Numbered from the stretch's first letter, positions 18,122 through 58,515 are shown. The stretch: DNA of 64,000 nt from Squalus acanthias (GCA_030390025.1 CM059431.1:149608001-149672000), one strand, 5' to 3'. The notes: generated by a model not told the origin, from the sequence alone. Numbers and translations are program-made.

Positions 18122-18128
18122 CCCTTTT

Positions 18129-22340: not shown

Positions 22341-23609
22341 AGTCTTGCTATTTGGGGAACCTTTTAAAGAGACATAGTCAACATCAGGGACACCTTTTAA
22401 AGAGGGAGTGGCTTCATCATGGACACTTTTTAAAGAGGGTTATCCCCATCAGGGAACACTTTTATAGAGAGAGTCTCATCATCAGGGACTCCTTTTAACG
22501 AGCGAGTCTCACCATCACGGACGTCTTTAAAAGAGAGATCTCATCTTCAGAACCATTTAAAGAGGGAGTCTTTCTATCAGGGAGCGCTTTTAAAGAGGGT
22601 GTCAACATCGGCGACCCATTTTAAAGAGAGAGTACTTCTATCAACGGCATCTTTTAAAGAGAGAGTCTTTTTATCAGGGAACCCATTTAATGAGGGAGTG
22701 TCTCCATCAGGGACACCTTTTAAACAGGGAGTCTCACCATAAGGTACCCCTTTTAAAGAGGGAGACTCAACTTCTGGGATCCCTTTCAAAGAGAGAGTCT
22801 CGCCATCAGAGACCCCTTTTAAAGAAAGAGTCTCCCCATTATGGATCGGTTTTAAAGAGGGAGTCTCGCCACCAGAGACAATTTTAAAAAGGGAGTATTT
22901 CTATCAGGGAGCCCTTTAAAATATGCAGTCTCACCCTTGGGGACCCATTTCAAAGAGAGTGTCTTTCTATCAAGGTCCCCTTTTAAAGAAAGAGGCTTTC
23001 TATCAAGGTCCCCTTTAAAAGAGGGAGTCTCACCAGCAGGGACTCCTTTCAAAGATGGAGTCTCACCATCAGGTACCCCTTTTAAAGAGTGTCACCCCAT
23101 CAGGGTCCCATTTTAAAGAGCGTCTCACTCTAAGGGACCCCTTTTAAAGAGGAGTCTCACAATCAGGGCCCCCTTTTAAAGTGGGAGTGTCGCCTTCAGG
23201 GGCACCTTTTAAAGAGGGAGTCTCACCATAAGGGATCTCTTTTAAAAGGGAGTCTCAGCATCAGTGACCTATTTTAACGATAGAGTCTCCCCATTTGGCA
23301 TCCCATTGATGGATGAAGTCTCACCATCAGGGAACCCTTTTAAAGCGGCAGTCTTTCTATCAGGGGTTCTATTAAGGACGGAGTCTCACCATCAGAGACC
23401 CATTTACAGAAGGAGTATTTCTATCAGGGAGCCCTTTTGAAGTGAGTCTTACTTTCAGGGACCTCTTTTAAAGTGTGAGTGTCACCATCAGAGAATCATT
23501 TTTAGCAATGAGTCTCAAATACAGGGACGCCTTTTAAAGTGAGACTGTCACTATCAGGGACCTCTTTTAAAGTGAGAGTCTCGCCATCAGAGACCCTTTT
23601 AAAAAGAGA

Positions 23610-24112
23610 GGGCTGGATTTTCATTGACCACGATTGTGAAACATGGCAGCAGCACATTTCGATAGCTGACTATCAGCTACAGGTCCACTATTACAACGGA
23701 GATCTGATGAAGGTAATAGTAATATTAGGTCTGAAAGTCAGCTCTGATGCTTCTGCATTGAAGGATCGGAGACTGCCTGACCTTTGCTGTGAGAGAACCT
23801 AGATGCCAAAAAAATCTATCTCTCTCTATCTCTCTCTCTCCAGACATGGAGCTGCTGCTCATTTTGCATCCAGGTCCTCTCACAACAAAGGCCAGGCAGT
23901 CTCTGACCTCCAATGCAGCAGCAATGATGACATCATCAGAGGCGACTGTCAGACAGAAACCACTAATTGGTTCATGGGTTCCCACATGCTGGAACTCAAT
24001 TGCACAATTAGGTGAAAATTGCATCAATCTCCCACATCCAATTGCAGTCGGGTGGATAACACGAAATGCGGATGACACGAACCCAACCAGCCCAAGTATC
24101 AAAATCAAGCCC
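23610..24112. mobile_element. Non-autonomous DNA transposon (MITE, PIF/Harbinger-like), internally shortened copy
   Basis: Terminal inverted repeats GGGCTGGATTTT...AAAATCAAGCCC and 3-bp TSD AGA (23607-23609, 24113-24115). The interior is the reverse complement of 40193-40620. Confidence 0.85.
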
Positions 24113-25418
24113 AGAGTCTTTTAATCAGGGATCCCTTTTAAAGTGAATCTTCCTATTCGGCAAAAATTTTTAAGAGAGAGTCTCACCAACAGGGACACCT
24201 TTTAAAGAGGGAATGTCTCCATCAGGGACATATTTTAAAGAGGGTGTCTCCCTATCAGGAACGATTTTAAATAGAGAGTCTCACCATCAGGGACCCCTTT
24301 TAAAGAGGGTGCCTCACCATCAGGGATCGCTTTTGAGGAGAGAGTCTCGCCATCAGGGACACCTTTTAAAGAGAGAGTCACTCCATCTGGTACCCCTATT
24401 AAAGAGAGAGTCTCACCATCAGGGACCCCTTTTAAAGAGAGAGTCTCACCATCAGGGATACCTTTTAAATAGAGATTCTCTCCATCAGGGATCACTTTTA
24501 AAGAGAGAATCGCACCATCAAGGATCCCTTTTAAGTAGGGAGTCTCACCATCAGGCATCTGTTTTAAAGAGGGCGTCTCAATATCAGGGATCACTATTAA
24601 AGAGAGAGTCTCACCATCAGGGACCCCTTTTAAAGAGGGAGTCTCACCATTAAGGAAACCCCTTTTAAAGAGAGAGTCTCACCATCAGGGACCCTTTTTA
24701 AAGAGGGAGTCTAACCTTCAGGACCCCTTTTAAAGAGGGCGTCTCAACATCAGGGACCACATTTAAAGATGGACTCTCACCATTAGGGACCCCTTTTAAA
24801 GAGGGAGTCTCACCATCAGGGACCTCTTTTAAAGAGGGAGTCCCCCATCAGGGATCCCGTTTAAGGATAGTCTCACCATCAGGGACCCCGTTTAAAGAGG
24901 GAATCTCCCAATTCGGGACCCATTTTAAAGAGGGAGACTCACCATCAGGGACCCTTTCAAAGAGGGTGTCTTTCTATCAGGAAGCCCTTTTAAAGATGGA
25001 GTCACACCCTCAAGGGACCCATTTTAAATTCAGAGTCTTTCTATTAAGAACACCGTTGAAAGAGTGAGCCTTTCTGTCAGGGACGTCTTTTAAAGAGAAT
25101 CTTCCGATTAGGGACACCTTTTAAAGAGAGAGTCTCACCATCAAGAACCCCTTTTAAAGAGGTAGTGTCTCCATCAGGGACACTTTTAAAAAGAGGGTGT
25201 TTCCCCAGCAGGGACCCCTTTTAAAGAGGGAGTCTCACCATCATGGAACATTTTTAAAGAGGAGTCTCACGATCTGGGCCCCTTTTGAAGAGGGAGTATC
25301 CCGATCAGGAAGCCCTTTTAAATAGAGAATCTTTCCACCAAGGACCCCTTTTAACGAGGGAGTCTCACCATTCGGGATCCTGTTTAAAGATTGAGTTTCA
25401 GCATCAGGGACCGCTTTT

Positions 25419-26842: not shown

Positions 26843-28291
26843 AATATTTTAACGAGATAGTCTCTCCCTCAGGGACTCCTTTTAAAGAGAGTGTCTCGCC
26901 ATCAGAGACCCTTTTAAAGAGTTTGTCTCAACATCAGGGATACCTTTAAAAGAAAGAGTCTCACAATCAGGGACCCCTTTTAAAGAAAGAATTTCACCAT
27001 CAAGTATCCCATTTAAACAGGGAGTCTCACCATCAGGGGCCCGTTTTAATGAAGGTCTCACCATCAGGGACAAATTTTAAAGAGGGAGTCATCCCATCAG
27101 GGAAACCTTTTAAAGAAAGAGTGTCGCCATCATGGACCCCTTTTAAAGAGGGAGTCTCACTATCAGGAACCCATTTTAAAGAGGCTGTTTCAGCAACAGG
27201 GACCACATTTAAAGAAAGAGTCTCACCATCAAGGGCCCCTTTTAATGAGGGAGTATACCCATCAGGGTCCCCTTTTAAAGAGATAGTCTCACCATCATGG
27301 ACCCCTATTAAAGATAGAGTCTCACCATCAGGGACCCCTTTTAAAGAGGGAATCTTCCCATCAGGGGCCCCCATTAAAGAGGCAGTCTCACTATCAGGGA
27401 CAACTTTTAAAGAGAGAGTCTTTCTATCAGGGACCCCTTTTAAGGAGGGACTCTCACCCTCGGGGACTCTTCTTAAAGAGAGAGTCTTTCTATCAGGGAC
27501 CCCTTTTTAAGAGAGAGTCTCCCCATTAAGGAACCCTTTTAAAGAGGCTCACCATCTTGGACCACTTTAAAGAGGGTGTTTCAGCATCAGGGACTCCTAT
27601 TAAGGATGGAGTCTCAACATCAGGGACCCATTTAAAGAGACAGTCTCAACATCAGGGACCACTTTTAAAGAGAGTCTCAACATTAGGGACCCATTTTAAA
27701 GAGGGAGTGTTACCATCAGGGACAACCTTTAAAGACCGTTTTCTATCAGGGACCCTTTTTAAAGAGGGAGTCACACGGTCAGGGACTCATTTTAAAGAGA
27801 TAGTCTTTCTATCAGGGACCCCATTTAATTGGAGGGTCGCTCCACCAGGGACCCATTTTAAAGAGGGAGTCTCACCATCAGGGACCCTTTTTTAAGAGAG
27901 AGTTTCACCATCACGGATCACTTTTAAACAGGAAGACTCACCGTCAGAGACCCTTTTAAAGAGGGAGTCGTTATAACAGGGACCCCTTTTAAAGAGGGTG
28001 TCTCCCTATCAGGTACCACTTTTAAAGAGGAAGTCTCACCATCAGGGTCTCCTTTTAAAGAGGGAGTCTCATCATGAGTGGCCCTTTTAAAGAGGGAGTC
28101 TCATCATGAGTGGCCCTTTTTAAAGAGTGTGTCTCACCATCAGGGAGCCCTTTTAAAGGTAGTCTTACCATCAGTGTCCCCTTTTAAAGGGGGAGTCTTA
28201 AGATAAGGACCCCTTTTGAAGAGAGAGTCTCACCATCAGGGATCCCTTTAAAAGAGGAAGTCTCACCATCAAGGTTCCCTTTTAAAGAGGG

Positions 28292-28382
28292 ACAAATGTG
28301 AGAAGTCGCAAAACACCAGGTTATAGTCCAACAGCTTTATTTGAAAGCACAAGCTTTCGGAGCGCTGCTCCTTCGTCAGATT
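28292..28382 (-). mobile_element. Solo PLE pseudo-LTR fragment with hammerhead-like core, inserted in satellite B
   Basis: Matches 15634-15714. Minus strand reads CTGACGA-AGGAGCAGCGCTCC-GAAAGCTT at 28351-28379. Confidence 0.85.
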
Positions 28383-30856
28383 GAGTCTCACCATCAGGCT
28401 CCCATTTTAAAGAGAGAGCCTTTCTCTCAGGGCCTCCTTTTGAAGAGGGCGTCTTTCTAGAGAGAGAGTCTCCCCATTAGGGACACATATTAAAGAGGCA
28501 ATCTCTCCATAAGAGAAACCTTTTAAAGAGAGAGTCCAACCATCCGGGTCCCCTTTTAAAGAAGGAGTCTCACCCTCAAGGACCTACTTACAAGGGGGAG
28601 TCATCATTAGAGACCCCTTCTAAAGAGAGAATCTTACTATCAGGGACCCCTTTTAAAATTGGAGTCTCACCCTCGGGGATTATTTTTAAAGAGAGAGTCT
28701 TTCTATCTGGGATCACTTTTATAGATAGAGTCTCCGCATTAGGGACACCTTTTAAAGAGGCTCACCATCAGAGACCACATTTAAAAAGGGTGGTTAAGTA
28801 TCAGAGACCCCTTTTAAAGAGAGAGTCTCACCCTCAGGGACCCCTTTTAAAGAAGGAGACTCACCGCCAGAGACCAATTTAAAGAGGGAGTCTTTCTATC
28901 AGGGACACCTTTTAAAGAGGGAGTCTCAACATCAGGTGCCCCTTTTGAAGAGGGAGTCTCAGCATCAGGGACCCATTTTAAAGAGAGAATCTCTCCATCA
29001 GGGACCCCTTTTAAAGAAATAGTCTCACCATCAGAGACCCTTTCAAAGATAGTCTCACGATCAGGGACCCCTTTTAAAGAGGGTGTTTCTCCATCAGGGA
29101 TCTCTTTTAAAGAGGGAGTCACACGGTCAGGGACTCATTTTAAAGAGATAGTCTTTCTATCAGGGACCCCATTTAATTGGAGGGTCGCTCCACCAGGGAC
29201 CCCTTTTAAAGAGGGAGTCTCACCATCAGGGACCCTTTTTTAAGAGAGAGTCTCACCCTCAGGGACCCCTTTTAAAGAAGGAGACTCACCGCCAGAGACC
29301 AATTTAAAGAGGGAGTCTTTCTATCAGGGACACCTTTTAAAGAGGGAGTCTCAACATCAGGTGCCCCTTTTGAAGAGGGAGTCTCAGCATCAGGGACCCA
29401 TTTTAAAGAGAGAATCTCTCCATCAGGGACCCCTTTTAAAGAAATAGTCTCACCATCAGAGACCCTTTCAAAGATAGTCTCACGATCAGGGACCCCTTTT
29501 AAAGAGGGTGTTTCTCCATCAGGGATCTCTTTTAAAGAGGGAGTCTCACCATCAGGGACCTCTTTTAAAGAGGGAGTCTCACCATCAGGGACCCCTTTTA
29601 AAGAGAGAGTCTTTCTATCAAGGACCCCTTTTAAAGAGGACGTCTTTCTATCAGGGACCCCATAAAGAGAGAGTCACCCCATTAGGGACACTTTTAAAGA
29701 GGCAGACTCACCATCAGGGACCACTTTTGAAGTGGATGTTTCAGCATCAGGTATTCCGATTAAAGAGGGAATCTCACCATCAGTGACCACATTTAAACAG
29801 GGAGTCACACCATCAGGGAGCCCTTTCAAAGAGAGAATTTCACCATCAGGGTCCATTTTAAAGTGGGAGTCTTTCTATGAGCGAGCCCTTTTCAAGTGGG
29901 TATTAGCATCAGGGACCCCTTTTAAAGAGGGAGTGTCTTCTTCAGTGGCTGCTTGTAAAGATGGAGTCTCAACAACAGGGCCCACTTTTTAAGAGGGAGT
30001 CTCCCCAACAGGACCACTTTTAAAGAGATTCTCACCATCAGGCGCCCCTTTTAAAGCGGGAGTCTCACCAAGGGGTGCCTTTTAAGGAGGACGTCTCACC
30101 ATCAGGGAGCCCTTTTAAACGAGAGAGTCTCCATATTAGTCACCCCTTTTAAAGAGTAAGTCTCCCCATTAGAGACATCTTTTAAAGAGAGAATCTCACC
30201 ATTAGGGAGCACATTTAAAGAGGGTGTATCCCATTCAGGGACCACTATTAATGACAGAGTCTCTCTACCAGGGACCCATTTTAAAGAGGGAGTCTCACCA
30301 ACAGGTACCCTTATCAAGACCGTGTCTCAGTATCAGGTACCCATTTAAAGAGGCAATCGTTCTATCAGGGACCCCTTTTAAAGAGGGTGTCTCATCATCA
30401 GGGATCCCTTTTAAAGAGTGAGTCTCAGCCTCGGGGACGCATTTTAAAGAGAAAGTCTATCTATCAGGGACGCCTTTTAAAGAGGGTGTCTTTCTTTTAG
30501 CGAATCATTTTAAGGAGAGATTGCCCCGTATAGGGACACCTTTTAAAGAGGCACTCTCACCATCAGGGAAAACTTTTGAAGCGGGTGTTTCAGCATCAGG
30601 GACTCCTATTTATGAGGGTGTCTCAACATCAGGGAGCCCTTTTAAAGAAAGAGTCTCTCCATCACGGACCACTTTTAAAGAGGATGTGTATCCACAGGGA
30701 CCCCTTTTAAAGAGGGAGTCATTCTAACAGGGAGTCCGTTTAAAGAGGGAGTCTCACCATCAGAGGCCCAATTTAAAATGAGAGTCGCACCATCAGCGAC
30801 CCCTTTTAATGTGGGTGTATCCCCTTCAGGGACCCATTTTAAGGATAGAGTCTCTC

Positions 30857-31399
30857 TGAATCGATAATTACTAGTCCTAGCCCCTTTAGGCCTACCCCGG
30901 ATCAGGCGTTTTCCCCAGACGTTCAATTTCAACTAAAATTTGAGGTAGCCGAATCCTAAAGATGCTTAATTGGGTCTTAAGGACCAAACTGACTATCCCT
31001 AAAGGAAAGGAACAACCTAAAGATGTTACCGTCCGCCAGATAGCACTTTTAATAAGTTTAGCTAGACTTTAACATTCCGGATCTTATGAGGGTCCGGGAA
31101 GCTCCTTCAGAATTCTACAGCTCCTCAGCAGAAAGTGTACAGAGATTCAGTTTGCGAATTTGATACAGAAATAGTATTTGAGACAATTCTAAAAATATAT
31201 AAATTTATTAAAGAACCGACATGTAATTTACAGTTGGTGATTCAATCGCAACATTAACAGTTGCAAAAACAAAAATCTTACAATTCTATTATCAGAGATC
31301 CTTATTCTCAAATCTTAACTTCACTAGTTTTACAGTTCTTAGTTTATTCCAGGATATTCACCAAACTCAAATACAAGTACCTTGATCCCCAAGATACAA
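30857..31399 (-). repeat. Partial 3' LTR (R/U5 portion only)
   Basis: Aligns to 36901-37580 apart from the 37013-37135 insertion. Similarity ends abruptly at CCCCAAGATACAA. Confidence 0.9.
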
Positions 31400-34300
31400 G
31401 CATCGCGTGGAGGAGTCCACGACACCATCTGACTGACTGTCGTCAGTAGTTCGATCGCATCCATTTCCTTTGTCGTGCTCCACGCTGGGTCTTGAAAGAC
31501 AGCGTATTATTCCTCCATTTCGGTATCCCGCAGTACATCTTTTGAGATTATCTATGGAGACAGTTTTAAGAATATGCTTGCCATTCGGCTCATCAATATG
31601 TTTTTTAACTGTTCTTTCGTTAATAACAGCATGCATTTGAGCAGGTTTTTACAACTTCGGTCTTAAACCAGGTTTTTGCTCGAACCTCTTTTCCTGTACC
31701 CATTCTCTTACTAGGGGTTGCCATGCTTTGTTTGTCAATTTTTTCTGCCTATTTGCCTCCCTTATCCTCTGATCAATTTGATGAATCTGCTCTGTTTCTT
31801 CTTTTTTTCAAATCTATCTGTCGCTGTCGGGTCAAGGACTCAGAGTGCAGAGGCAATAAAAGAAGTATGGGTATGCATCTCAACTCCATACATCAGATAA
31901 TATAGAGTTTTAGGGGACACTGTCCCTGATGCAGATGCGGGCAGATTATTAAGTGATATCTGCACCTCCGGAATGAAGGTGGTCCAATTATTTCCCTGAT
32001 TCTCAACAGTTTGACCAATAGCTTTTTTACTTCCTGGATTTTAAGTTCCAGCAGCCCCGCAGATTGCGGATGACATGGCGTGCTGTGCTGTCACCCAATC
32101 CCCCTTCGTTCGCAATAGTCTTTGAAGACCTTGGAAACAAAGGCTCCGCCTTGATCGGAGTGTAAGATTTTGGCTGCACCAGCTACAGTATTTATGTCAG
32201 TAATAGCATTGGCGAGTGCGTTTTCCGAAACAGTTTTTGTGGAGATCAGTCAGGAGAAGGAACTGCATCCATCTACACAATCGAGAACATGTCTATATCC
32301 CAAAGACGGGGCAAGTGGTCCAATAAAGTTAATAAATAATTTTCCGATTAGCTCATCAGCTTTCACAGGAGCCAATGGTGTTGGCTTAATTAGTGATGAG
32401 TTATTGGTTTAATAGCATGGCTCACAATTTGCCACGTATGTTTTACAAGCCTTAAGAATGCCTGGCCACCAATATAAGGGGGTCAATTTGCAGAATGTTG
32501 TTCTGGCACCACAATGTGCTTGACCTATGCGCTCGTGAGCTTCTTTTACAAGTTGTTCTCGTTTATGTATCGGGGGTACTTATCTGGTGCCCTTGGGCAA
32601 CTTAACTAGCACAATACCCATAGGGGTTTCCGAGTCAAATCCTGGTCGATTCTCTTTTGTTGGGTCTAACAGCGGAATCAGTTCCTCATCCTGATGAGCT
32701 GCCCGTTCTGCCCTTGTGATTATACTTATATTGGCAGCCCCCTCTCCAGGGGGTTTCATGCAGACCGAACATTTTGCTTGTTCCTCTGCAAGACTGTTTC
32801 CTTTTGAGTGTACTGCCCCAGTAGTATGCCCGTTTTCATGAATCACCTGACAATTCTGTTTCTCCATTCTCGAATGAAGAATGTCTTCCCACAATGACTT
32901 ATGTTTTATGGGTTAACCCTTATGATTGGTAAAATTTGTTTGTTCGCATAAAACTAGATATTGGTTCTATCCTCTTTTACTGTAGTCACTATCCTTACGG
33001 ATTAGTATGGGTTGAATAGGGTCTGCCTATTCTAAAGCATCCCTTAATGCTGCGGCTTCAGCATATTGCGCTGTCTTATGGCCAAGTGGTATGGACAGTA
33101 ATTCTTCTGGAGAATAAGAATAGGAATCTCGAAAAGTCCCTACTAATATCCCCATCCCAGCTGAGGATAGTTGGGTTGTCCTTTTTGAAACGTCATTGAA
33201 GATCCATCACAGTAAATGATTGACGGTACTCTGTAAGCGGTCTCATAGGTATTTGTCTGATTCCCACATTCGTATCATCATCCTTCATGATGAGGAGATG
33301 CTCTCAGTCCATTTCCGGGGAGAGGAATTTAAAAATGAGTGTAGGATCATTCTTGAACGATGCCCATTTATTATATCGGATGTGTGTGGCTCTTTTTTCA
33401 TCAGAGGCCATCCTCACTACTGATCTTAAATCGGGAATCTCAGTATGGATTGTAATGAGCTATTTCCCTTGAAGGGTCCGTGTCTTGATGAGGCATTGGA
33501 CTGGCATAGTCATGACACTTTCTTTTTTAATGTGCCTCCTTTCGAAATTGGAATATATAAGAATGGAATTGAAGGGCACTATGATCTTTTCATTATAGAA
33601 AACTGCATCTGCCACATTAGGTGATGACCTGAGATGAATATTGAGGGGAAATGGTAAGTCCCTCTTTTCCAGGCCTATGGCTTTCTATACCTCTCGGCAT
33701 AATTGTTGCAATTTTGAGTAATCGTCTGGTGAAAATATGAATGGTCCTTTTGCTGCTTCGCCCACTCTAGCATACAGGGGTGTTGAGAGCTCGGCAAAGA
33801 TTGGCGTAAATGGATCAAGCAAAATTCAGGAGTCCTAAATTTGCTTGAGATTTTTTAGCATTTTAGGATATTGAATGGTGGCTATTGTTCTTTATAGGAT
33901 TGAGTTAACCCTCTAACGTTTCCAGTTATTCGCAGGCCCAGAAAATCTACCTCTTCCCTGACTAGTTGACTCTTTTGTATGTTGATTAAGTACCCAGCAG
34001 TTGTAAGTCTGGATAAAACACTATCAATGGCGTTTAAGTGTTCTTGGAGATTTCCATGTGACAGGTATATATCGTCCACATAAGAATTGACGTTAGGTCG
34101 GTCTTTTAAAAGGTCAATGATGTGGGCTGAATACAGAACGGGACTGTTTTGAAAAACCTGGGGCAATCTGGTCCAGCAATACAGATAAACATCGTGTCAA
34201 TTCATCGCTGTTTTTGACCAATCAGGTTTTTAGTTTGGATGTGGCCAGAAGCCGTTTGCTAGATAAATACAACATTTATATTTTTCCCTCATGATTCCAG

Positions 34301-34990
34301 AGAGAAGGTCTGTGGAATTTTGCTGTTGTGCAGTATGTGGGGCCGTTATCTTATTTAAGGCTGAATAATTGACCACTAATCTCCACATCCCATCTGGTTT
34401 AGCAACACCAAACAATGGTGAATTAGTTCAAGATGCCATTTTGATTAAGACATCTTGTTCTGTTAGTTCTTTGAGTGTTGTTAGGAGATCTATGTTTCCT
34501 TTGTGGTCCTGAATAGGCCACTGTATTTTAAGTTTGTGCCATCCAGCATAAAGTGGGTGGGGTTTGATGTCTATTTTTCCACATTGATTTGGATGATTTG
34601 TAGATAAGGGTAGTATCTATTAAAGAGTTGCTCGAGGAGATCTTTGCATCCCCCCTCTAGGTAACTTTGCTCAAGCTGTGTCCGAAAATATTTTTCCTTG
34701 TCATCCTTGTCTGTGAATGCTTCGACAGGTCTGGTTGAGATTTTAAGGTAATGTTTCATGTCTGGTTGTCCTATTATGAGGGAATAGGTCAATTGTAGTA
34801 CCAGTCCTACATCTAGAGTCATCATGATTACATATATGATAATAGCTATTTTGTAAACATTAATTTGTCTCGAGTGAATCCCCCTAATGGTCTTTTACAA
34901 AAATGGGCTCCCCAAATCTGTCCACCAAGTTTTTATAATTGCAGGATCTATTACAGTGTAATCAGCTCTCGTATCAAACAGGGCCTTCAC
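31400..34990 (-). pseudogene. pol: Foamy-like pro-pol (protease, RT, RNase H, integrase) with many stops and frameshifts
   Basis: Protease ALFDTRAD. RT KPDGMWRLVVNY..LNK, KYKCCIYLANGFWPHP, PQVFQNSP, SYVDDIYLSH. RNase H IYCDGS, HKTAQYAE, HENGH, GNSLAE. Integrase H..H..YWWPG..C..C, HSDQGGAF, HPQSAG, C-terminal INERTV...TVSIDNLK. Confidence 0.92.
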
Positions 34991-36655
34991 TTATTTGTTT
35001 GTGGGCAATGTTGCCAGGGCATAGGTGAATTCAAGAGGCCCTGGCTGGATGCCAGGCCTTAAATCCTGGGATTGTTCATCCTCAGGTTCCTGAGTTTCAT
35101 TTGATGCTTTGTCTTTTATTATTTTGACTGATTTTTGTTCCTCCCTCTTGGGGGTTTCATGTTTTTCAGATCCCTTACGTGGTTTGTCGAACCGTTTATT
35201 ATCTTGACGATCCTCCTGTTGGGGTGAACGTTGGTTCTGCCAGGAAGCCTTTTGATCTCCATTTCGGTTTCCCCGGTATCCTCCCATGGCTCTCTGGCAG
35301 TTTTGACCAGTGTAAATGCTGTCCCCATTGGTAGTCCACTTTCTTTCGCTTTCCTTTCGAGCTCTAGCCCCTCCTCTATCACATCTTTCTGGGGAGAATT
35401 TTTTCATGTAGAGCGGGCGAGTTGGGGGTGTAAACCTTCTGGAATACGCTCTTGGGGGTCCCGAGCCACGAGTTTGTGTCTGGGCGGGGTGTACTTGAGA
35501 CTTGTGTCTGTACAGTCCTTGCTTCTGTGTACCAAAGGTACCATCTCCGGTGTTTTTATGCCTAATTTCTGATCTCATTATAGGTTTAGTTTGGGGTAGT
35601 ACTAAGAGGTCATGATTTAATTGCATAATGCGATTGACATTATCCCATCTTTGTTGGTTATCTCGATAATCGTTTAGAGCACCCTCACAGGCATGTTTGA
35701 GGGCTGTATTTTGGTATTGATTGGCTAGGCAACCTTGGACAATATCACAGTTATCCTGTGTAAGTACTTTGCCTAATCTGTAGGCAGCTACCAGCCCTTT
35801 AGTTGTGGCTGTATTAGTGAGTATTTCCTTGATGGATACCTTTACATGCCCTCCCTGAGTTGCCGTGATAACATAGGCGTATATTTGAACCCAGTTGTTA
35901 CACTTGTTTAATGGGTGAATTAAGTCTGAACTCAGTATCATTTGCATTAGTTGCCTCAGGTGTTGGGCATTCCAATCTTGGCAACAGGTTTCCAATTTAT
36001 CAAGTTTAGTTAGAATCCAGCAGATTTTTTCCCGGCTGGTGTTTCCCGGTCTACCACACATTGTGTAGATAGAGCTCAGGTTTACTTGACCTAGGGGTGC
36101 AATGCGTGGTTGCTGGGGTTGGCTTACTGGACCAGTAATCATTATACCTACAGCATTTAGATAAGATTGAGCTAGTTCCTGTCGGCATTGGTTATAATGG
36201 ATTCTATGCTGTCTATAATTTTCTCGAAGATTCTGGTAATTTATTTCATCATGAGCTTGCCAACTTAATCGGAATCCATGGCCTCGTGGACCATAGGCTG
36301 CACCGGGTCCTACTGTTCGGCCATGGTTGCCAACACCTTTTTATGCACCATTCATTAGGCCTCCCAATTGTGCGGGTGTGCACATTATCATTAAGGAATT
36401 TAGTAGATTTGGAGTAGATGTTTGATTATCCCACCGGATATTCTGTATCCTCTGGTTCTGGGGATCAACATCAAACGTGCCATGAGTTTTAACGGCTCCG
36501 TCGGCATCAAAGCGTTCTATTTGAAAAATTATCACTTGGCTTTGTGGAGGTACAGAGATAGGATTATTTCCCCGAATAAGGCAATCGTTTGAATGTCATA
36601 ATAAAAAGACTTGCTCCATTCGGAGAGGGTTTGCCATTTCGTCAGGATCTAACAT
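34991..36655 (-). pseudogene. gag: Foamy-like gag; one frame from ATG 36655/36637 with two internal stops; 36142-34991 is open (383 aa)
   Basis: Capsid-like segments IYTMCGRPGNTSREKICWI and TKGLVAAYRLGKVLTQDNCDIVQG resemble spumavirus Gag as I recall it. The C-terminal region is Gly/Arg-rich and basic with no CCHC knuckle. Lies between the PBS and the protease. Confidence 0.85.
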
Positions 36656-36880
36656 CGGTTAAGGTTTAACTTGAAATTTATAAGAAATTTCTCGACCTCA
36701 ATGGTATATTGAGCGAGTTCTGATTTAAGTTCCACAAGGCCTGATCAGGTAATTGTCATCTCTAGAGACTTAATTCTGGGTCTTAGTACCACTGTCAGTA
36801 AAACACTCCTTCTATACTTAACAATCTACAAAATGGATATAGATTTAAATATAAGTATAGGCTCTGTATCAACTCGTTAA

Positions 36881-36898
36881 CACACAGGTTGGGCGCCA
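36881..36898 (-). promoter_or_regulatory. Primer binding site, tRNA-Lys1,2 type
   Basis: Minus strand TGGCGCCCAACCTGTGTG versus canonical TGGCGCCCAACGTGGGGC (first 11 nt identical), 2 nt after the LTR end at 36901. Confidence 0.85.
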
Positions 36899-36900
36899 AC

Positions 36901-38321
36901 CGAAGGGATAATTACTAATCCTAGCCCCTTTAGGGCTACACCGGAGAAGGCGTATTCCCCAGATGTTCGCTTTCAACTAAAGTTTGAGGTAACCGAATCC
37001 TTTAGACCCTTACGATAGCAAAATACTGCAGATGCTGGAAATCCGAAAGGTCATCGACCTGAAACGTCAACTCTCTTTCTCTCTCCACGGATGCTGCCTG
37101 GCCTGCTGAGTTTTTCCAGCGTTTTCTGTTGTTATTCCTTTAGACCCTTATTGGGTCTAAAGGTCCAGAGTATCTGTCCCTAAAGGAAAGAAAAAACCTG
37201 AAGATGTTACCGTCCTCTGAATAGCACTTTTAATAAGTTTAATTAGACTGTAACGTTCCGGGTATTATGAGGTTCCGGAAAACTCCCTCAGAATTCTGCA
37301 ACTCCTCACCAAAGAGTGCACAGAGATTGAGTTTGCGAGTGTGATACAGAAGTACTATTTGAGACAATTCTAAAAATATATAGATTTATTAAAGAACCGA
37401 TATGTAATTTACAGTTGATTATTCAATCGCAGCATTAACAGTTCCAAAAACAGAAATCTTACAATTCTATTATCAGAGATCCTTATTCTCAAATCTGAAA
37501 TTCGCTAGTTTTAGAGCTCTGAGTTTATTCCAGTGTATTCACCAATATCAAATACAGGTACCTTTATCCCCGAGATACAAAGAGATGTAGACTTACAGAG
37601 ACTGCCTCTGAAGCCGAGGTTTGCCTAGCCCCTTTACAGCGAATCTATCATCCCATTTGAAAGTCCAATATTTATAACCATTTTCAGTGGTAATTCCTTT
37701 GAAGTTTTCTGCTGATATAAGCTAATTATCTCTAGTCATTTTCCTGTTGACCCGTGCTATTCTTACAGTCAGTTCTACTGGTAGCAAGCAGACTCGTGTC
37801 TCTCCTTTAGGTGTTCGAAGCTTATCATAAAAACGATGTGACCAGCAGGTGCATCTATTTGATGACATTCTTACCAAGGTCTTATATGCAATTCTTAAGT
37901 CACCTCAGCTGGTTGCCACATAGAATCGTGTCTCCTAGGTGTTGATGCCTCCCTCACCTGATCCCATTCCCACGAAGTAATATGTTTCTTAATTTTCTGC
38001 GATTCTTTTGACGTCATTTTTACGAAAGCATATGTGTCTTCTTCTTTTATGTGTATCATTCCAAAGTGTTATTTAAGACACCTTAACAGGGTATACCAAT
38101 GTGTTCTTTCCAAGGCTTCAGACTTCAGGAACCTTTAACCTTCTGTTTCAACAGGGCTATTGATTCAGTGTCAACAACTTATCTTATCTCAATCGCCTGT
38201 ATGGTGAACAGCTTTTCCACTGTCAGTTTTTTTAGGTTTCCATGGACAGTTTGTCATGTTACAAAAACAAGAATATTTCAAAGAATGGTGTATTTTTCTG
38301 ATTATGGCTTATTCCTTCACA
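36901..38321 (-). repeat. 5' LTR (~1.28 kb without the nested insertion); candidate TATAAA 37671-37676, splice donor GTAAGT 37591-37596, AATAAA 37524-37529 and 37385-37390
   Basis: Bounded by the PBS and the TSD. Imperfect terminal inverted repeat TGTGAAGGAATAA...TTATCCCTTCG. Motifs read on the minus strand. Confidence 0.85.
37013..37135. mobile_element. 123-bp PLE-type pseudo-LTR-derived insertion in the 5' LTR
   Basis: 15-bp TSD TCCTTTAGACCCTTA (36998-37012, 37136-37150). Absent from the 3' LTR. Contains AGGTC-ATC-GACCT-GAAAC (half hammerhead-like) and resembles 41301-41420. Confidence 0.8.
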
Positions 38322-40192
38322 TCTCCACGAGGGACCCCTTTTAAAGAGGGAGTCTCACCATCAGCGGTCCCTTTTACAGAGTGAGTCTCATTTTTCAGAG
38401 ATCCCTTTTAAAGAGAGAGTCTCACACTCAGGGACCCGTTTTAAAGAGGGAGTCTCACCATTAGGAACACTTTTAAAGAGGGTGTTTCAGCATCAGGAAC
38501 CCCTTTTAAAGAGGGTGTTTCAGCATCAGGGGGCATTTTTAAAGCCTGTGTCTCGCCATCAGGCTTTCATTTTAAAGATAAAGTCTATCTATCAACGACC
38601 ACTTTTAAAGAGAGAGTGTCACCATCAGGGAGACCTTTTAAAGAGAGAGTCTCAACATCAGGGACCCCTCTTAAAGAAAGAGTCTCAGCATAAGGGACCC
38701 CTTTTAATGAAAGTGTCTCATCATCAGGGAACTCTTTTAAAGAGAGAGTCTCACCATCAGGGAACTCTTTTAAAGAGAGAGTCTCACCATCAGGGAACTC
38801 TTTTAAAGAGAGAGTCTCACCATCAGGGAACTCTTTTAAAGAGAGAGTTTCACCATCAGGGAACCCTTTTAAAGAGGGCGTTTAAGCATCAGGGACCCCG
38901 TTTAAGGAGAGAATCTCACCATCAATGGACCCTATTAAAAATGCAGTCTCACCCTCAGGGTCTCATGTTAAAGAGACAGTTTTTCTATCAGTGACCCCTT
39001 TCAAAGAAAGAGTTCGCAATTAGGGACCCTTTTAAAGAGGGTGCTTCAGCATCTGGGACTCCTAATAAATGGGGAGTCTCACCATCAAGGAACCCTTTTT
39101 CAGGAGGGTTACTCACCATCAGGGACCTCATTTAAACAAGGAGTCTCAACATCACGGACCCCTTTTAAAGCGGGTGTCTCATCAACAGGGAGCACTATTA
39201 AAGAGGGAATCTCATCCTCGGTAACACATTTTTAAGCGAGTTTCTTTCTATCAAGGACCCCTTTTAAAGAGGATGTATTTCTATTAGGGACCCCCTTTAA
39301 AGATAATCTTTATATTAAGCACACCATTTAAAGAAAGATTCTCAACATCAGGGACCCCTTTTAAAGAGGGAGTGTCTCCAGCAGGGAGGCATTTTAAAGA
39401 GGGTGTTTCACCATCAGGGACTACTTTTGAAGAGGGAGTCTCAACATCAGGGACCAGTTTTAAAGAGGGTGAATCAGAATCAAGGACCCTTTTTAAAGAG
39501 AGAATCTCACCATCAGGGGCCCCTTTTAATGAGAGGGTCACTCCACCAGGGATAACTTTTAAAGAGGGTGTCTTTCTTTCCGGGACCCCTTTTAAATAGA
39601 ATCTTCCAACCAGGGACATATTTTAAAGAGAGAGTCTCCCCATTAGGGACCCCTTTTAAAGAGGCAGTCTCATCATCAGGGACTCCTTTTAAAGAGGGTG
39701 TCTCAACATCAGGGAGAACTATTAAAGATCTTGTTTCCTCATCAGTGACCTCTTTTAAAGAGGGAGTCTCAGCATCAGGGACCCCTTTTGAAAAGGGTGT
39801 TTCAGCATCAGGGACTCCTATTAAATGGGGAGTCTCACCATCAGGGCCCCACTTTAAGGAGAATGACTCACCATCAGGGAGCCCTGTTAATCAGGGAGTC
39901 TCCTCATCAGGGACGCCATTTAAAGGGGTAGTCTCACCATCTGGTACCCATTTAAAGAGGAAGTGTCACCATCAGGGGCCACTTTTAAAGAGGGAGTCTC
40001 AACATTAGGGACCCCCTTTAAGAGCGTGTTTCAGCATCAGGGACTCCTATTAATGAGTGTGTCTCACCATCATGGATACCTTTTGAACAGAGAATCTCGC
40101 CATCAGGGACCCCCTTTAAAGAGGGAGTCCCACGATCAGGGACCCCTTTTAAATAGGCAGTCTAACCACCAGGGACCAATTTTAATGAGAGA

Positions 40193-40889
40193 GGGCTGGA
40201 TTTTGATACTGGGGCGGTTTGGGTTCGAGTCATCAGCATTTCGTGTTATCCAGCCGACTGCAATTGGATGTGGGAGATTGATGTAATTTTCACCTAATTG
40301 GGCAATTGAGTTCCAGCATGCGGCAACCCATGAACCAATTAGTGTTTTCAGTCTGAAAGTCGCCCCTGATGATGTCATCATTGCAGGTCAGAGACTGCCT
40401 GGTCTCAGAGATTGCCTGGCATTTGCTGTGAGAGGACATGGATGCAAAATGAGCAGCATCTCAGAGAAAGAGACAGAGAGACAGAGATTTTTCAGCAGCA
40501 TCAGAAGCGACTTTCAGACCTAATAATACTACCTTCATCACATCTCCGTTGTATTAGTGGACCTGCAGCGGATAGTCAGCTATCCACTTGTGCTCCCGCC
40601 AGGTTTCACTGGTGTGTTTCACATCAGGCGTCCTTCGCGTTGGAAAAGGGTTAAACTAGCTAAAGCGTTTCAAAATGGCATTACAGAGCGAATTTAGGGC
40701 TTGTTAAGGGCTTTAATGGCCTCTCCCGCCTCTTGGAGGCGGGAGGGAGTCGGGAACACCGCACACGATTTTATCAAAATTGCGTGGAGGCGGAATGGAG
40801 GTGGTATCAGGTCCACCCGCCAGTTTTCGCAATTTTAACCCCCTACACGCCTCCAATTCAGCATCCACGGCCCGATGAAAATCCAGCCC
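40193..40889. mobile_element. MITE (PIF/Harbinger-like), longer copy, inverted relative to 23610-24112
   Basis: Perfect 12-bp terminal inverted repeats GGGCTGGATTTT / AAAATCCAGCCC and TSD AGA (40190-40192, 40890-40892). Confidence 0.88.
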
Positions 40890-42719: not shown

Positions 42720-45700
42720 GCACCTCAGTACTGCCCCACCCTCATTACTGCCCCTCAAACAGTGCGCCACTCCCTCAGTACAGCCCCTCCGACAGTGCAG
42801 CACTCCCTCAGTTCTGCCCCTCCGATGGAGCAGCGCTCCCTCAGTACTGACCCCCCGGCACTGCAGCGCTCCCTCAGCACTGACCCTCCGGCACTGCAGC
42901 GCTCCCTCAGCACAGACCCACCGACAGTGCATCGCTCCCTCAGCACTGACCCTCCGACAGTGCAGCGCTCCCTCAGTACTGCCCCTCCAACAGTGCAGCG
43001 CTCCCTCAGTACTGCGCCTCCGACAGTGCAGCGCTCCCTCGGTACTGCCTCTCCGACAGTGCGGTGCCCCCTCAGTACTGCCCCTCCCACAGTGCAGCGT
43101 CCCTTAATACTGCCCGTCCGACAGCGCACGGTTCCCATGGTACTGCCCGTCCGTCATTTAAGCGCTCTCTCAGTACTGCCCCTCCGACAGTGCAGCTCTC
43201 CCTCAGTACTGCAACTCCAACAGTGCGGTGCTCCCTCAGTACTCCCACTCAGCAGTGCAGGTCTACCTCAACACTGACCCTCTGACAGTGCAGCGCTCCC
43301 TCAGTCTGACCCTCTGTCAGTGCAGCACTCCCTCAGTACTGCCCCTCCATCAGTGCAGCTCTCCCTCAGTATTCCCCTCTGAGAGTGCAGTGCTCACTCA
43401 GTACTGCCCCTCCAACAGTGCAGCGATCCCTCAGTACTGACCATCCTAACGCGCAGTGCTCCCTCAGTCTGACTCTCCATCAGTGCAGCGCTCCCTCAAT
43501 ACCTTCCCTCCGAGAGTGCAGTGCTCCCTCATTACCACGACTCCGTCATTGCAGCGCACTCGCAGCACTGCCCCTCCATCAGTGCAGCACTCCATCAGTA
43601 CTGCCCCTCCGACAGAGCAGCGCTCCCTCAGTCCTTCCAGTCCAGAGTGCAGCGCTCCCTCAGTCTGACTCTCCATTAGTTCAGCGCTCCCTTAGTACTG
43701 CCCCTTCGATAGTGCAGCACTCCCTCAGTACTGCTTCTCCGTCAGTGCAGCGCTCCCACATTACTTCCCCTCCAACAGTGCAGCGCTGCCTCAGTACTGC
43801 CCCACCGACAGTGCAGAGCTCCCTTAGTACTGCCCCTCCGACGGTGCAGCGCTCCCTCAGTACTGCCCCTCCGACAGTGCAGATTTCCCTCAGTACTGCC
43901 ACTCCGTCAGTGCAGCACACCCTCAGTACTGACCCTCTGGCAGTGCGCCACTCTCTCAGTACTGCCCATCCAGCAGTGCAGCACTCCCTCAGTTCTGAAC
44001 CTCCGACGGAGCAGCGCTTCCTCAGTACTGCCCCTCCGACAGTGCAGCGCTCCCTCAGCACTGCCCCTCCGACAGTGCAGCGCTCCCTCAGTTCTGCCAC
44101 TCCGACAGTGCAGCGCTCCCTCAGTACTGCCGCTCCAAAAGTGCAGCGTGCACTTAATACTGCCCCTCCAGCAGTGCAACGCTCCCTCAGTACTAACCCT
44201 CCGATAGTACGGCGTCCCGTAATACTGCCCGTCCGACAGTGCAGCGCTCCCTCAGTACTGCCCCTCCAACAGTGCAGCCGTCTCTCAGTACTGCCCCTCC
44301 AACAGTGCGGTGCTCCCTCAGTACTGCCCCTTCCACAGTTCGGCGCTCCCTCAGTACTCCCACTGAGCAGTGCAGCCCTCCCTCAGTACTGCCCCTCCGT
44401 CGGTGCAGCTCTACCTCAGTACTGCCCCTCTGAGAGTTCAGTGCTCCCTCAGTACTGCCCCTCCGATAGTGCAGCGCTCCCTCCGAACTGCCCCTCCGAC
44501 AGTGCAGCACTCCGCAGCACTGCCCCTCCATCAGTGCAGTGCTCCCTCAGTATTTACCCTCCGACAGTGCGGCGCTCCCTCATTTCTTCCAGTCCAACAG
44601 TGCAGCGCTCCCTCAGTCTGACTGTCCATTAGTGCAGCTCTCCCTCAGTAATGCCCCTTCGACAGTGCAGCGCTCCCTCAGTATGGCCCATCCATCAGTG
44701 CAGCACTCCCACATTACTGCCCCTCCAACAGTGCCGCACTCCCTCAGTACTGCCCCTCCGATAGTGCAGTGCTCCCTCAGTACTGACCCTCCGACAGTGC
44801 AGCGCTCCCTCAGTAATGTCCCTCTGACAGTGCGGCCCTCCCTCACTACTGCCCCACCGACAGTGTGGTGCTCCCTCAGTACTGCCACTCTGACAGTGCA
44901 GTGCTCCCTCAGTACTGCCCCTGCGATAGTGCTGCGCTCCCTCAGTACTGCGCCTCCGACAGTGATGCGCTCCCTCGGTACTGCCCATCCGTCAGTGTAG
45001 CGCTCCCTCAGCACTGCACCTCCGACAGTGCAGCGCTCCCTCTTTCCTGCCCCTCCAACAGTGCAGTGCTCCCTCAGTACTGCCCCTCCAACAGTGCAGC
45101 GCTCACTCAGTACTGCCCCTCCGACAGTGCAGCTTTCCCTCAGTACTGCCCCACCGACAGTGCAGCGCTCCCTCAGTACTGCCCCTCCGACAGTGCAGCG
45201 CTCCCTCAGTACTGCCCCTCCGACAGTGCGGCGCTCCGTCGCTACTGCCTCTCCGACAGTGCGGTACTCACTCAGTACTAACCCTTCCACAATGCAGTGT
45301 CCCTTAGTACTGCCCGTCCCACAGTGCAGCGCTCCCTCATACTGCCCCTCCGACTGTGCAGCGCTCCCTCAGTACTGCCCCTCCGACAATGCAGCGCTCC
45401 CTCGGTACTGCCCCTCCGACAGTGCAGCGCTCCCTCAGTACTGCCCCTCTGGCAGTGCGGCGCTCCCTCAGTACTGTCCCTCCAACCGTGCAGCGCTCCC
45501 TCAGTTCTGCATCTCCGACAATGCTTTGCTCCTTCGGTACTGCCCCTCCGACAGTGCAGAGCTCCCGCAGTACAGCCCCTCCGACAGTGCAGCGCTCCCA
45601 GTACTGCCCCTCCAGCAGGGCAGCGCTCCTCAGTACTGCCCCTCCGACAGTGCTGTGCTCCCTCAGTACTGCCCCTCCCACAGTGCAGCGTCCCTTGTTG

Positions 45701-58514: not shown

Positions 58515-58515
58515 C

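Follow-up and report, generated by a model that had tools for sequence, protein, structure and literature searches.

Foamy viruses (FVs) make Pol separately from Gag, according to passages of PMC3705263, which also state (citing Heinkelein 2000) that primate FV genomes undergo intracellular retrotransposition in cell culture. A 4-bp target-site duplication (TSD) is described as specific to the genus Spumavirus in a section of PMC2615609. Foamy-like ERVs are already a known kind in cartilaginous fishes, since CmiFLERV/CmiERV from Callorhinchus (excerpts of PMC4422223 and PMC5512871) and ERV-Spuma.0-Sca from the small-spotted catshark (PMC10699275) have both been called foamy-like on Pol. The catshark element is 9220 bp long, with LTRs of 866/869 bp, a gag of 753 aa, a pol of 982 aa and an env of 442 aa, and its authors detected neither a Gag nor an Env domain in it (PMC10699275). 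The salamander element NviFLERV has a tRNA-Asn primer binding site (PBS), and copy numbers of 9 and 23 are termed "high" for foamy-like lineages, both according to the same excerpt of PMC5512871.

The element considered here lies in a window of 64,000 nucleotides from the shark Squalus acanthias (GCA_030390025.1 CM059431.1:149608001-149672000). It occupies positions 30857-38321 on the minus strand; the plus strand begins with TG and finishes with CA. In all probability it is a dead provirus, left by a single integration, from the env-deleted branch of a foamy-like ERV family that would have spread intracellularly after env was lost.

Integration into a satellite and decay of the window copy

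The provirus splits an array of a 33-bp satellite (26847-40193) into two tracts, delimited by TRF at 26847-30854 and 38330-40193. Identical copies of TCTC stand at its two ends (30853-30856 and 38322-38325), and excision of the insert together with one TCTC leaves a satellite unit whose length, exactly 33 bp, is the TRF period on both flanks. Because the TG..CA ends, the identical 4-bp TSD and the restored unit occur together, they point to one integration event, and the intact junctions of the original prediction stand. A 4-bp TSD is also found at a sibling copy (L027). The window copy thus entered the satellite once, through an integrase making 4-bp duplications.

The 5' LTR (36901-38321, minus strand; 1421 bp) starts with TGTG, and its outer 741 bp are repeated in the genome (45 scored matches). 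An unrelated short high-copy repeat has later been inserted into it at about 37007-37146 (limits approximate, from sibling alignment). This insertion of 137 bp is private to the window copy; the repeat yields 996 first-look genome candidates, many of them 98-100% alike, and has no match in Rfam. The 3' LTR remnant (30857-31399, minus strand; 543 bp) consists of the R/U5-side part only, ends in TTCA and aligns to 36902-37580 of the 5' LTR with 87% identity (K2P 0.147 over 542 positions). An LTR of about 1.3 kb had been proposed, which fits the 5' LTR once the insertion is subtracted (about 1.28 kb) but not the truncated 3' LTR.

Alignments with siblings end at 31397 and restart within the LTR, marking a private deletion junction at 31374-31399 (minus strand). 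The missing 1.2-1.4 kb or so comprises about 0.5 kb of post-pol tail, in which the polypurine tract lay, plus roughly 741 bp from the start of the 3' LTR. Four stops in Gag-PR and at least 15 in pol (about 20 in total) are accompanied by at least four frame changes. The window copy is a dead, old provirus. After integration a single deletion took away its post-pol tail together with 741 bp on the outer side of the 3' LTR, and the copy gained the LTR repeat, the stops and several frameshifts besides.

The PBS, TGGCGCCCAACCTGTGTG (36881-36898, minus strand), is of tRNA-Lys(CTT) type as judged by complementarity to the 3' end of the host tRNA. Counting the added CCA, the contiguous match extends over 11 bases in the window copy and 14 in siblings. 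The host's own tRNA-Lys(CTT) was confirmed as the partner at four of four tRNA loci, in agreement with the Lys1,2-type PBS proposed earlier.

Gag, Pol and the foamy affinity of the family

The pro-pol remnant (31397-35059, minus strand) encodes protease, reverse transcriptase (RT), RNase H and integrase, recognized from motifs and from Pfam matches of sibling ORFs (Spuma_A9PTase, RVT_1, RT_RNaseH, RNase_H, Integrase_H2C2, rve and SH3_11). The protease active-site motif reads DTRAD in the window copy (34961-34975, minus strand), and the A9-type foamy protease profile (Spuma_A9PTase, PF03539) scores 32 and 30.1 bits in siblings against a cut-off of 21. The predicted RT motifs were located, YVDD at 34071-34082 and LANGFW at 34245-34262 (both minus strand), the former also supported by an RVT_1 match in the window copy (E=4e-14 on 33882-34196). 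The motif TVSIDNLK (31541-31564, minus strand) aligns with the same motif in the C-terminal SH3 domain of PFV integrase. It had been taken as the end of integrase, but the Pol frame runs about 50 codons beyond it, so the end does not lie there. No dUTPase was found in seven ORF pieces covering the protease to the end of pol.

The gag remnant (35063-36637, minus strand) starts with MANPL, has two in-frame stops and matches the central domain of Spumavirus Gag (Gag_FV_central, PF20672). This profile scores 43.3 bits (E=4e-11) in the window copy and 49.4 bits in a sibling, above the cut-off of 30 but weaker than the 102 bits of a salamander protein. Gag also matches PDB entry 5m1h (E=7e-4). A search of Gag for the C-X2-C-X4-H-X4-C pattern found none, as expected from the claim that it lacks a zinc knuckle. 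The tail had further been called Gly/Arg-rich. The C-terminal 145 residues of a sibling Gag contain 16 R, 12 K, 12 G and 16 Q, and a check for GR boxes found runs of three or more G/R limited to GGG and RRG. The tail is thus basic by composition, and Gly/Arg-rich only in a loose sense.

Searches with both parts of Pol favor foamy proteins by a wide margin. Among PDB structures, PR-RT scores 265 bits (1.7e-77) to foamy entries (7ksf/7o0g), 106 to Ty3 and about 65 to XMRV/MLV, while integrase scores 257 bits (2.3e-75) to PFV (3l2q), 59 to Ty3 and 31 to HIV. In a library of 1.84 billion representatives, feline foamy virus Pol was the best of 28,588 proteins matched at E up to 0.001. The named best matches for RT, protease and integrase are simian (SFV), feline (FFV) and New World monkey SFV proteins, at 41-47% identity. 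Integrase scores 229-258 bits to FVs and 18-58 bits to teleost-type elements.

A carefully built RT tree of 52 rows and 247 columns places the family inside the foamy-like clade (100/98), with Gypsy-like rows as the outgroup (99/98). Within that clade the family falls in a group of nine rows with mammalian FVs and elements of the salamander Pleurodeles (98/81), whose sister clade of 16 rows includes frogs and a turtle. Teleost-type elements, one catshark protein and Callorhinchus fall apart from the family. The AU test did not reject a clade of mammalian FVs and salamander elements that excludes the family (p 0.234) and weakly rejected a basal position of the family (p 0.028), for a group named post hoc from the tree. 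As far as sequence comparison goes, the family's genes stand nearer to mammalian foamy viruses than do those of the foamy-like fossils in bony fishes.

ERV-L elements (class III) are env-less, multi-copy mammalian relatives of foamy viruses that have spread within genomes; the kinship is distant, and they are marked by a dUTPase domain in pol and by grouping with HERV-L/MuERV-L. An element of this type, another non-foamy retroelement or Ty3/Gypsy, foamy-like in pol alone, would also be env-less and multi-copy as ERV-L is, or have gag and pol in one frame like many LTR retrotransposons, and the RT tree was built without named ERV-L or epsilonretrovirus rows, as well as without foamy elements from coelacanths, reptiles, birds and caecilians. 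This reading is nevertheless exceedingly improbable. The Gag and protease profiles both exceed their Pfam cut-offs, relatives of the family carry a foamy-type Env, pol lacks a dUTPase in the pieces searched, the PBS is Lys(CTT), feline foamy virus Pol heads the library matches, and Ty3 stays far below foamy proteins for PR-RT and for integrase alike. Ty3/Gypsy identity is rejected by these scores and by the outgroup position of the Gypsy-like rows. Within a comparison that leaves named ERV-L and epsilonretroviruses aside, RT and integrase did not group with Ty3/Gypsy or with structurally solved non-foamy retroviruses. The foamy-like (Spumaretrovirinae-related) assignment, first proposed from motifs, is well supported by the domain profiles, the best PDB and library matches, the RT tree and the Env of relatives.

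The family departs from foamy viruses at the junction of gag and pro. The two regions share a single reading frame, and the boundary is TGA or a sense codon in 18 copies: TTA in the window copy (35060-35062, minus strand, from comparison of copies), and TGA in nine, TGG in four and TGC in four of 17 other distinct copies. No Met occurs in the 28 codons before DTGAD, and no read-through structure stood out at the boundary (fold z -1.32). Separate Pol expression, a foamy trait, is not what this ORF layout appears to provide. Given the common frame of gag and pro-pol and the lack of a Met ahead of the protease, Pol was probably produced as a Gag-Pro-Pol fusion, through TGA read-through or directly.

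Env loss and spread of the family

Env is absent from the window copy. A foamy-type Env (PF03408, up to 87.8 bits) is encoded by relatives within this genome, and these matches adjoin gag/pol sequences 80-94% identical to those of the family. The family therefore descends from a complete gag-pro-pol-env virus with a foamy-type Env. Its env-less members share a two-part deletion, both junctions of which are common to all six env-less siblings examined. A 24-mer spanning the env-deletion junction occurs 369 times in the genome (up to two mismatches), never in the control, and is absent from four of four env-bearing copies, while a 24-mer at the LTR/PBS junction occurs 329 times. In a census of the env N-terminus, 114 of 123 scored rows end by residue 117 and just six loci extend further. 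First-look counts for gag (6629), part of the LTR (3762) and the env N-terminus (610) are unscored candidates and not copies. A two-part deletion removed about 3.2 kb of env from one lineage, which then reached hundreds of copies. The element had been presented as a rarity; the junction 24-mers give the family at least 330-370 copies, of which the window copy is one old member.

No conserved ORF of at least 70 aa is shared by three siblings between pol/env and the end of the LTR, and there is thus no sign of tas/bet in their tail and LTR. In env-bearing copies about 300 bp separate env from the LTR.

The private deletion of the window copy begins upstream of the junction left by the family's env deletion. 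That the window copy was already env-less when it integrated therefore rests on DNA trees and not on direct sight. The same missing junction would suit a copy that still bore env when it integrated and then shed env, tail and U3 at once through one large deletion of its own. Such a history is very unlikely, as DNA trees place the window copy within the env-less clade with SH-aLRT of 100 (integrase region) and 99 (gag region), apart from the four and three env-bearing copies respectively included. The window copy therefore most likely belonged to the env-deleted branch when it integrated.

After env loss, the family would have spread by intracellular retrotransposition within germ-line cells: Gag and Pol would form capsids, reverse transcription would be primed by tRNA-Lys(CTT), and the DNA would return to the nucleus and integrate. 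An alternative is spread in trans, in which particles supplied by an exogenous helper or by env-bearing relatives package the env-less RNA and re-infect germ cells. Aiewsakun and Katzourakis raised this route for fish foamy-like elements (in an excerpt of PMC5512871), it would yield the same pattern of copies, and env-bearing relatives with closely similar gag/pol are present in the same genome. These relatives are few, however (about six loci among the 123 scored rows), and all that were examined are broken, whereas env-less copies retain long gag-pro-pol frames, which is what a need for their own proteins in cis would predict. The retrotransposition described for primate FV genomes (passages of PMC3705263) also weighs against the trans route, which is rather unlikely.

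It is conceivable, although somewhat doubtful, that the family represents an elasmobranch-type foamy lineage, sister to or nested among tetrapod FVs and not one of the basal fish elements, that made a Gag-Pro-Pol fusion (by TGA read-through or directly) and was turned by its env deletion into an intragenomic retrotransposon present in hundreds of copies. In that case, the separate Pol expression that defines foamy viruses either arose late or was lost in this lineage. The family would also be a natural counterpart to the intracellular retrotransposition that foamy genomes show in culture, and could serve as a model of how ERV-L-like env-less families originate.

The family among foamy-related elements

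The mammalian exogenous FVs (prototype/simian and feline) resemble the family in Pol (matches of 41-47%), in a zinc-knuckle-free Gag with the Spumavirus central domain, in the tRNA-Lys(CTT) PBS, the 4-bp TSD and an LTR exceeding 1.2 kb, in GGGTG at the PPT/LTR border (seen in siblings) and in the foamy-type Env of the env-bearing relatives. Unlike them, the family has one gag/pro-pol frame with no Met before the protease, shows no sign of tas/bet in three siblings, and is endogenous, env-deleted and multi-copy. Salamander foamy-like ERVs (NviFLERV; Pleurodeles waltl P0044, P0075 and P0203) share the nine-row RT clade and the Gag central domain, but their RT is 37-39% identical to that of the family, they belong to another host class, and the PBS of NviFLERV differs from the Lys(CTT) type found here.

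The original prediction envisaged an undescribed cartilaginous-fish lineage. Such elements are already published as a kind, and they share the broad host group of this family, but the family looks distinct from the Callorhinchus and catshark elements. The Callorhinchus protein P0028 is 39% identical in RT and lies outside the FV-side clade. ERV-Spuma.0-Sca is set apart by its description, as in the family the LTRs measure about 1.25 kb, Gag about 540 aa and Pol more than 1100 aa.

ERV-L resembles the family in lacking env, in intragenomic spread and in distant foamy kinship. The family differs in still showing both env-bearing relatives and the precise env deletion, in the lack of a dUTPase and in a Gag and protease that match Spumavirus profiles. 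Env-less "superspreader" ERVs, reportedly described by Magiorkinis et al. in 2012, are said to have lost env and then reached copy numbers far above those of env-bearing relatives. The family follows the same course, with many more copies than its env-bearing relatives after env loss, but does so here in a foamy-like lineage.

The window copy and its surroundings

The element in the window is an endogenous retrovirus (ERV) insert of 7465 bp on the minus strand (30857-38321) that starts with TG, ends with CA, and has TCTC on either side. Removal of the insert and one TCTC in silico restores a 33-bp satellite unit exactly, and 33 bp is also the period of the flanking satellite arrays (26847-30854 and 38330-40193). 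The window copy was shown to be one integration event with a 4-bp duplication, a length described as genus-specific for Spumavirus (PMC2615609). The insertion described in the original prediction was thus borne out with corrections (its TG/CA ends, TCTC pair, and restored 33-bp unit all hold), and every sequence motif that it named was found in the copy.

The two LTRs are unequal. In the sense of the element, the 5' LTR lies on the right (36901-38321, minus strand, 1421 bp) while the 3' LTR is a left-hand remnant (30857-31399, minus strand) that aligns with 36902-37580; the pair is 87% identical (K2P 0.147 over 542 positions). Comparison with siblings (env-less copies elsewhere in the genome) shows that a single deletion removed the post-pol tail of ~0.5 kb and the first ~741 bp of the 3' LTR. 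In the 5' LTR, the outer 741 bp is not foreign DNA since it is found repeatedly in the genome at 80-87% identity (45 matches scored of 3762 first-look candidates). Recombination of two proviruses was rejected as the source of the unequal lengths because both flanks carry the same target-site duplication (TSD) and belong to one continuous satellite unit. The 5' LTR also contains a private insertion of ~137 bp (37007-37146) consisting of an unrelated short repeat, which matches nothing in Rfam at E values up to 1. A genome search with this repeat gave 996 first-look candidates, 40 of them scored, many of which were 98-100% alike. The repeat is very abundant, with many copies of ~95 bp that are 98-100% alike and some adjacent inverted pairs. 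Without this insertion the 5' LTR measures ~1.28 kb, in agreement with the LTR of ~1.3 kb originally described, but that length does not apply to the shortened 3' LTR.

The primer binding site (PBS) is TGGCGCCCAACCTGTGTG (36881-36898, minus strand), two bases beyond the LTR. The PBS of the siblings has 14 contiguous bases complementary to the tRNA-Lys(CTT)+CCA end, and host genes sharing that 3' end were tRNA-Lys(CTT) at all four loci checked. The primer site was shown to be of the Lys(CTT) type. The gag (36637-35063, minus strand) and pro-pol (35059 to about 31397, minus strand) remnants are recognisable but broken, with four stops in Gag-protease, at least 15 in pol relative to a foamy Pol, and reading-frame changes of 2-1-3-1-2, and no space is left for env. 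Taken alone, the window copy is an ordinary decayed ERV and a member of an abundant family.

Elsewhere in the window, a second 33-bp satellite, unrelated and G+C-rich, fills about 16 kb (42739-58515), with a GC content of about 0.61 and a strongly negative GC skew. Positions 1-2514 are occupied by a 32-bp satellite, and the AT-richer 33-bp satellite has additional blocks at 11060-15606, 22360-23610, and 24167-25418. Amid the satellite blocks, broken ORFs of 120-358 aa on both strands (16999-22068) look, by eye, like non-LTR (LINE-type) reverse transcriptases.

Single origin and multiplication of the env-less form

A search of the 3.71-Gb assembly (window at G000:C7:149608001-149672000) for sibling copies, suggested in the original prediction, found hundreds. 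With gag as query, 94 candidates were scored out of 6629 from a first look, and they gave 97 matches at mostly 80-85% identity. The LTR/PBS junction word, allowing up to two mismatches, occurs at 329 places genome-wide (control, 0), and a 24-base word spanning an env deletion junction at 369 places with the same tolerance (reversed control, 0). The copy number is at least some 330-370, and the window copy is therefore no rarity in this genome.

Siblings were taken from eight 10-kb loci around gag matches with long open frames, a choice that biases the sample to younger copies. They usually run from an LTR of ~1.25 kb through PBS, gag-pro-pol, and a tail of ~0.5 kb to a second LTR, without env. 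One complete sibling is 8488 bp long with a 4-bp TSD and has a purine run ending in GGGG before the TGTG of its 3' LTR. LTR pairs are 96.5-100% identical in siblings, 94.1% and 96.0% in two env-bearing copies, and 86.7% in the window copy. Because of this difference, the window copy is among the older insertions and the family was active over a long time. If the rate is assumed to be 1-2e-9 per site and year, the LTR distance of the window copy would correspond to roughly 37-73 million years. At one locus (L024), the LTR ends (1-351 and 9650-10000) are identical over 351 bp despite deletions inside the copy and ~3.3 kb of inserted foreign sequence; this identity could reflect recent insertion or gene conversion. 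Sequencing runs under four organism labels yielded 1474, 5336, 5085, and 94 contigs at least 85% alike; because the labels are coded and the contigs short, no conclusion on species range or expression is drawn from them. No run with RNA was listed as carrying the family, and all shares were at most 0.16.

A search with PF03408 (Foamy_virus_ENV), using a stricter first look, gave 11 matches from 13 candidates, all above the cut-off (best, 87.8 bits). The gag and pol adjoining four of these matches have 80-94% protein identity to the family, indicating that complete env-bearing relatives exist, and all four relatives examined are broken. Alignment of env-less with env-bearing copies reveals two deletions, about 1.72 and 1.44 kb long, with a 42-bp env island left between them. 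Both junctions are common to all six env-less siblings that retain the tail; in the remaining two of the eight this region is interrupted. The 24-base junction word is absent from the four env-bearing copies even with up to five mismatches. Additionally, in a search with the Env N-terminal protein, 114 of 123 scored rows (610 candidates) end by residue 117 and only 6 loci are longer. From these counts, nearly all copies descend from one env-deleted ancestor, and the env-less form is shown to have a single origin followed by multiplication. The private deletion of the window copy begins upstream of the family env junction and hides it, but trees built from the DNA of the integrase region and of gag place the copy within the env-less clade (SH-aLRT 100 and 99), on a terminal branch of 0.06-0.07 compared with 0.02-0.03 in siblings. 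One env-bearing relative (L039 and L040, G000:C22:33857500-33877499) is spread over about 15 kb with other elements inserted. With only 75% identity between its two LTR-like ends over 791 bp, it could be composed of two elements.

The env-less form is proposed to have multiplied by intracellular retrotransposition. Primate foamy virus (FV) genomes are capable of intracellular retrotransposition (Heinkelein et al. 2000, cited in the review PMC3705263). Packaging of env-less copies by env-bearing helpers was raised for fish elements by Aiewsakun and Katzourakis (PMC5512871) and would also account for spread without env. However, env-bearing copies are few and the env-less copies retain long gag-pro-pol frames, so that intracellular retrotransposition is the favoured route and helper packaging the less favoured one.

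Relatives and placement of the family

The foamy-like reading is supported by Pfam, solved structures, protein searches, and the reverse transcriptase (RT) tree. The Gag ORF of the window copy matches Gag_FV_central (E 4e-11, 43.3 bits; cut-off 30). Two unaltered sibling ORFs extend this: P0002 (951 aa; Gag, protease, and part of RT) matches Gag_FV_central, Spuma_A9PTase, and RVT_1, and P0001 (a 432-aa integrase) matches Integrase_H2C2, rve, and SH3_11. Further sibling pieces match the RT-RNase H connection and RNase H, and no dUTPase was found in the sibling ORF pieces searched. Among solved structures, protease (PR)-RT matches foamy PR-RT (1.7e-77, 265 bits) far ahead of Ty3 (106 bits), XMRV/MLV (about 65), and HIV (about 60), while the integrase matches that of prototype FV (PFV) (2.3e-75, 257 bits) ahead of Ty3 (59 bits) and HIV (31). 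Gag gives a weak match to the PFV Gag central domain (5m1h, 7e-4).

Of 28,588 matches in a search of 1.84 billion protein representatives, the top one was feline foamy virus Pol (279 bits, 47% identity) and the next in a single stretch was a 1687-aa protein (37%); a Callorhinchus protein reached 39% and teleost proteins 40-41%. In word-based searches, the RT matched simian FV (SFV) Pol with 47% identity and the integrase matched Pol of New World monkey SFV with 43% and 41%; after these came only Ty3/Gypsy-like proteins at 24-32%. For Gag, such a search of 5.8 billion predicted proteins gave no match of 295-942 aa at E<=0.001, a result that argues only weakly for absence. In RT and integrase, P0026, encoded by a Logan contig of 10,956 bp, is closer to the family than any other non-mammalian relative.

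The RT tree (IQ-TREE, 52 rows, 247 columns) was built with rows picked from a 156-row FastTree run, namely the 41 rows of the retrovirus-like clade, 10 Gypsy-like rows as outgroups, and a single env-bearing copy. The comparisons were made without coelacanth, reptile, bird, and caecilian elements and without a named ERV-L or epsilonretrovirus. A foamy-like clade of 23 rows (100/98) contains one clade of 13 rows, with teleost proteins and a Scyliorhinus torazame protein (100/97), and another of 9 rows (98/81) comprising Pleurodeles proteins, mammalian FVs, P0026, and the family; the Callorhinchus row lies outside the latter (86/39). In AU tests, a clade of mammalian FVs and salamander excluding the family is not rejected (p 0.234), and a clade of all bony-vertebrate rows excluding the family, a group defined only after tree inspection, is weakly rejected (p 0.028). 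Integrase scores agree with this (FVs, 229-258 bits; P0026, 216; frog proteins, at most 98; teleost-type proteins, 18-58). With the Spumavirus Gag profile, a salamander protein scores 102 bits compared with 49 bits for the family. Because salamander Gag fits this profile better, and given the tree, AU, and integrase results, the family is read from sequence comparison as sister to tetrapod FVs rather than nested among them. The catshark protein (P0048, S. torazame) sits in the teleost-type clade (100/97), away from the family, suggesting that elasmobranchs may have at least two foamy-like lineages.

Comparison with foamy viruses and published elements

Foamy-like ERVs of cartilaginous fishes are already known. 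Those of Callorhinchus were published by Han (2015) and by Aiewsakun and Katzourakis (2017), and Xu et al. (2018) placed ERVs of three cartilaginous fishes throughout the retroviral tree, including a foamy-related jawed-vertebrate clade. Aiewsakun and Katzourakis regarded 9 and 23 copies as high for foamy-like elements (PMC5512871). The small-spotted catshark element ERV-Spuma.0-Sca was published with 293 elements (PMC10699275). Its consensus has LTRs of 866/869 bp, gag of 753 aa, pol of 982 aa, and env of 442 aa (supplement 2), and its authors reported ZFERV-like RT domains without a Gag or Env domain. By these descriptions, rather than by sequences, it is built differently from the family; the short motifs of the family do not occur in the first 400 characters of each cell of that supplement, which says little. 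Outside subscription journals and repeat libraries, no paper was found that places a foamy-type family of elasmobranchs on the tetrapod side of the tree, reports hundreds of copies of an env-deleted foamy-like lineage, or describes a one-frame gag/pro-pol layout in foamy-like elements. Literature on foamy elements in named shark genera and elasmobranchs likewise held no paper describing such a family, and the accessible parts of an anamniote Env preprint and a 2023 genome-mining paper held nothing on shark foamy elements. These negatives fall short of proving novelty.

FVs serve for dating the origin of retroviruses, and their replication is unusual in that Pol is made separately from Gag, particles contain DNA, and genomes are recycled to the nucleus. 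No forms intermediate to this mode are known. The family, not the window copy, is the object of interest, depending on a fuller phylogeny and on prior cataloguing. It would represent a lineage of a cartilaginous-fish-type host on the tetrapod side of the foamy tree, and a single genome preserves the env-bearing form alongside the amplified, env-deleted form derived from it, with deletion junctions still legible. To these it adds hundreds of dated copies and a gag/pro-pol layout unlike the foamy rule. Because the four features co-occur in one genome, natural sequences make it testable when the foamy mode of Pol production arose and whether a foamy-type virus that loses env becomes a retrotransposon in nature.

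In the family, gag and pro-pol share one frame. The codon at their border in 18 distinct copies is TGA in nine, TGG in four (one env-bearing), TGC in four, and TTA in one, the window copy (35060-35062). It varies amid nearly invariant flanks (L012-L030 and L040, loci with other copies), far above the random decay of a star-like family. No Met occurs in the 28 codons upstream of the protease motif. A Gag-Pol fusion, made by TGA read-through or directly, seems the simplest way to Pol, and Pol from a spliced message starting inside gag is possible. RNA 3' of the TGA lends no support to read-through (MFE -30.8 kcal/mol, z -1.32; 19 of 200 shuffles fold equally well). There is no sign of tas or bet, as no ORF of at least 70 aa 3' of pol is shared by three siblings. 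P0026 is likewise a single frame (1687 aa), with a Gag-like or Gag-sized N-terminal part, which matches no Pfam Gag family, joined to PR-RT-RNase H-IN. In layout, the family is a clear departure from FVs, which according to the review PMC3705263 are alone among retroviruses in forming no Gag-Pol fusion.
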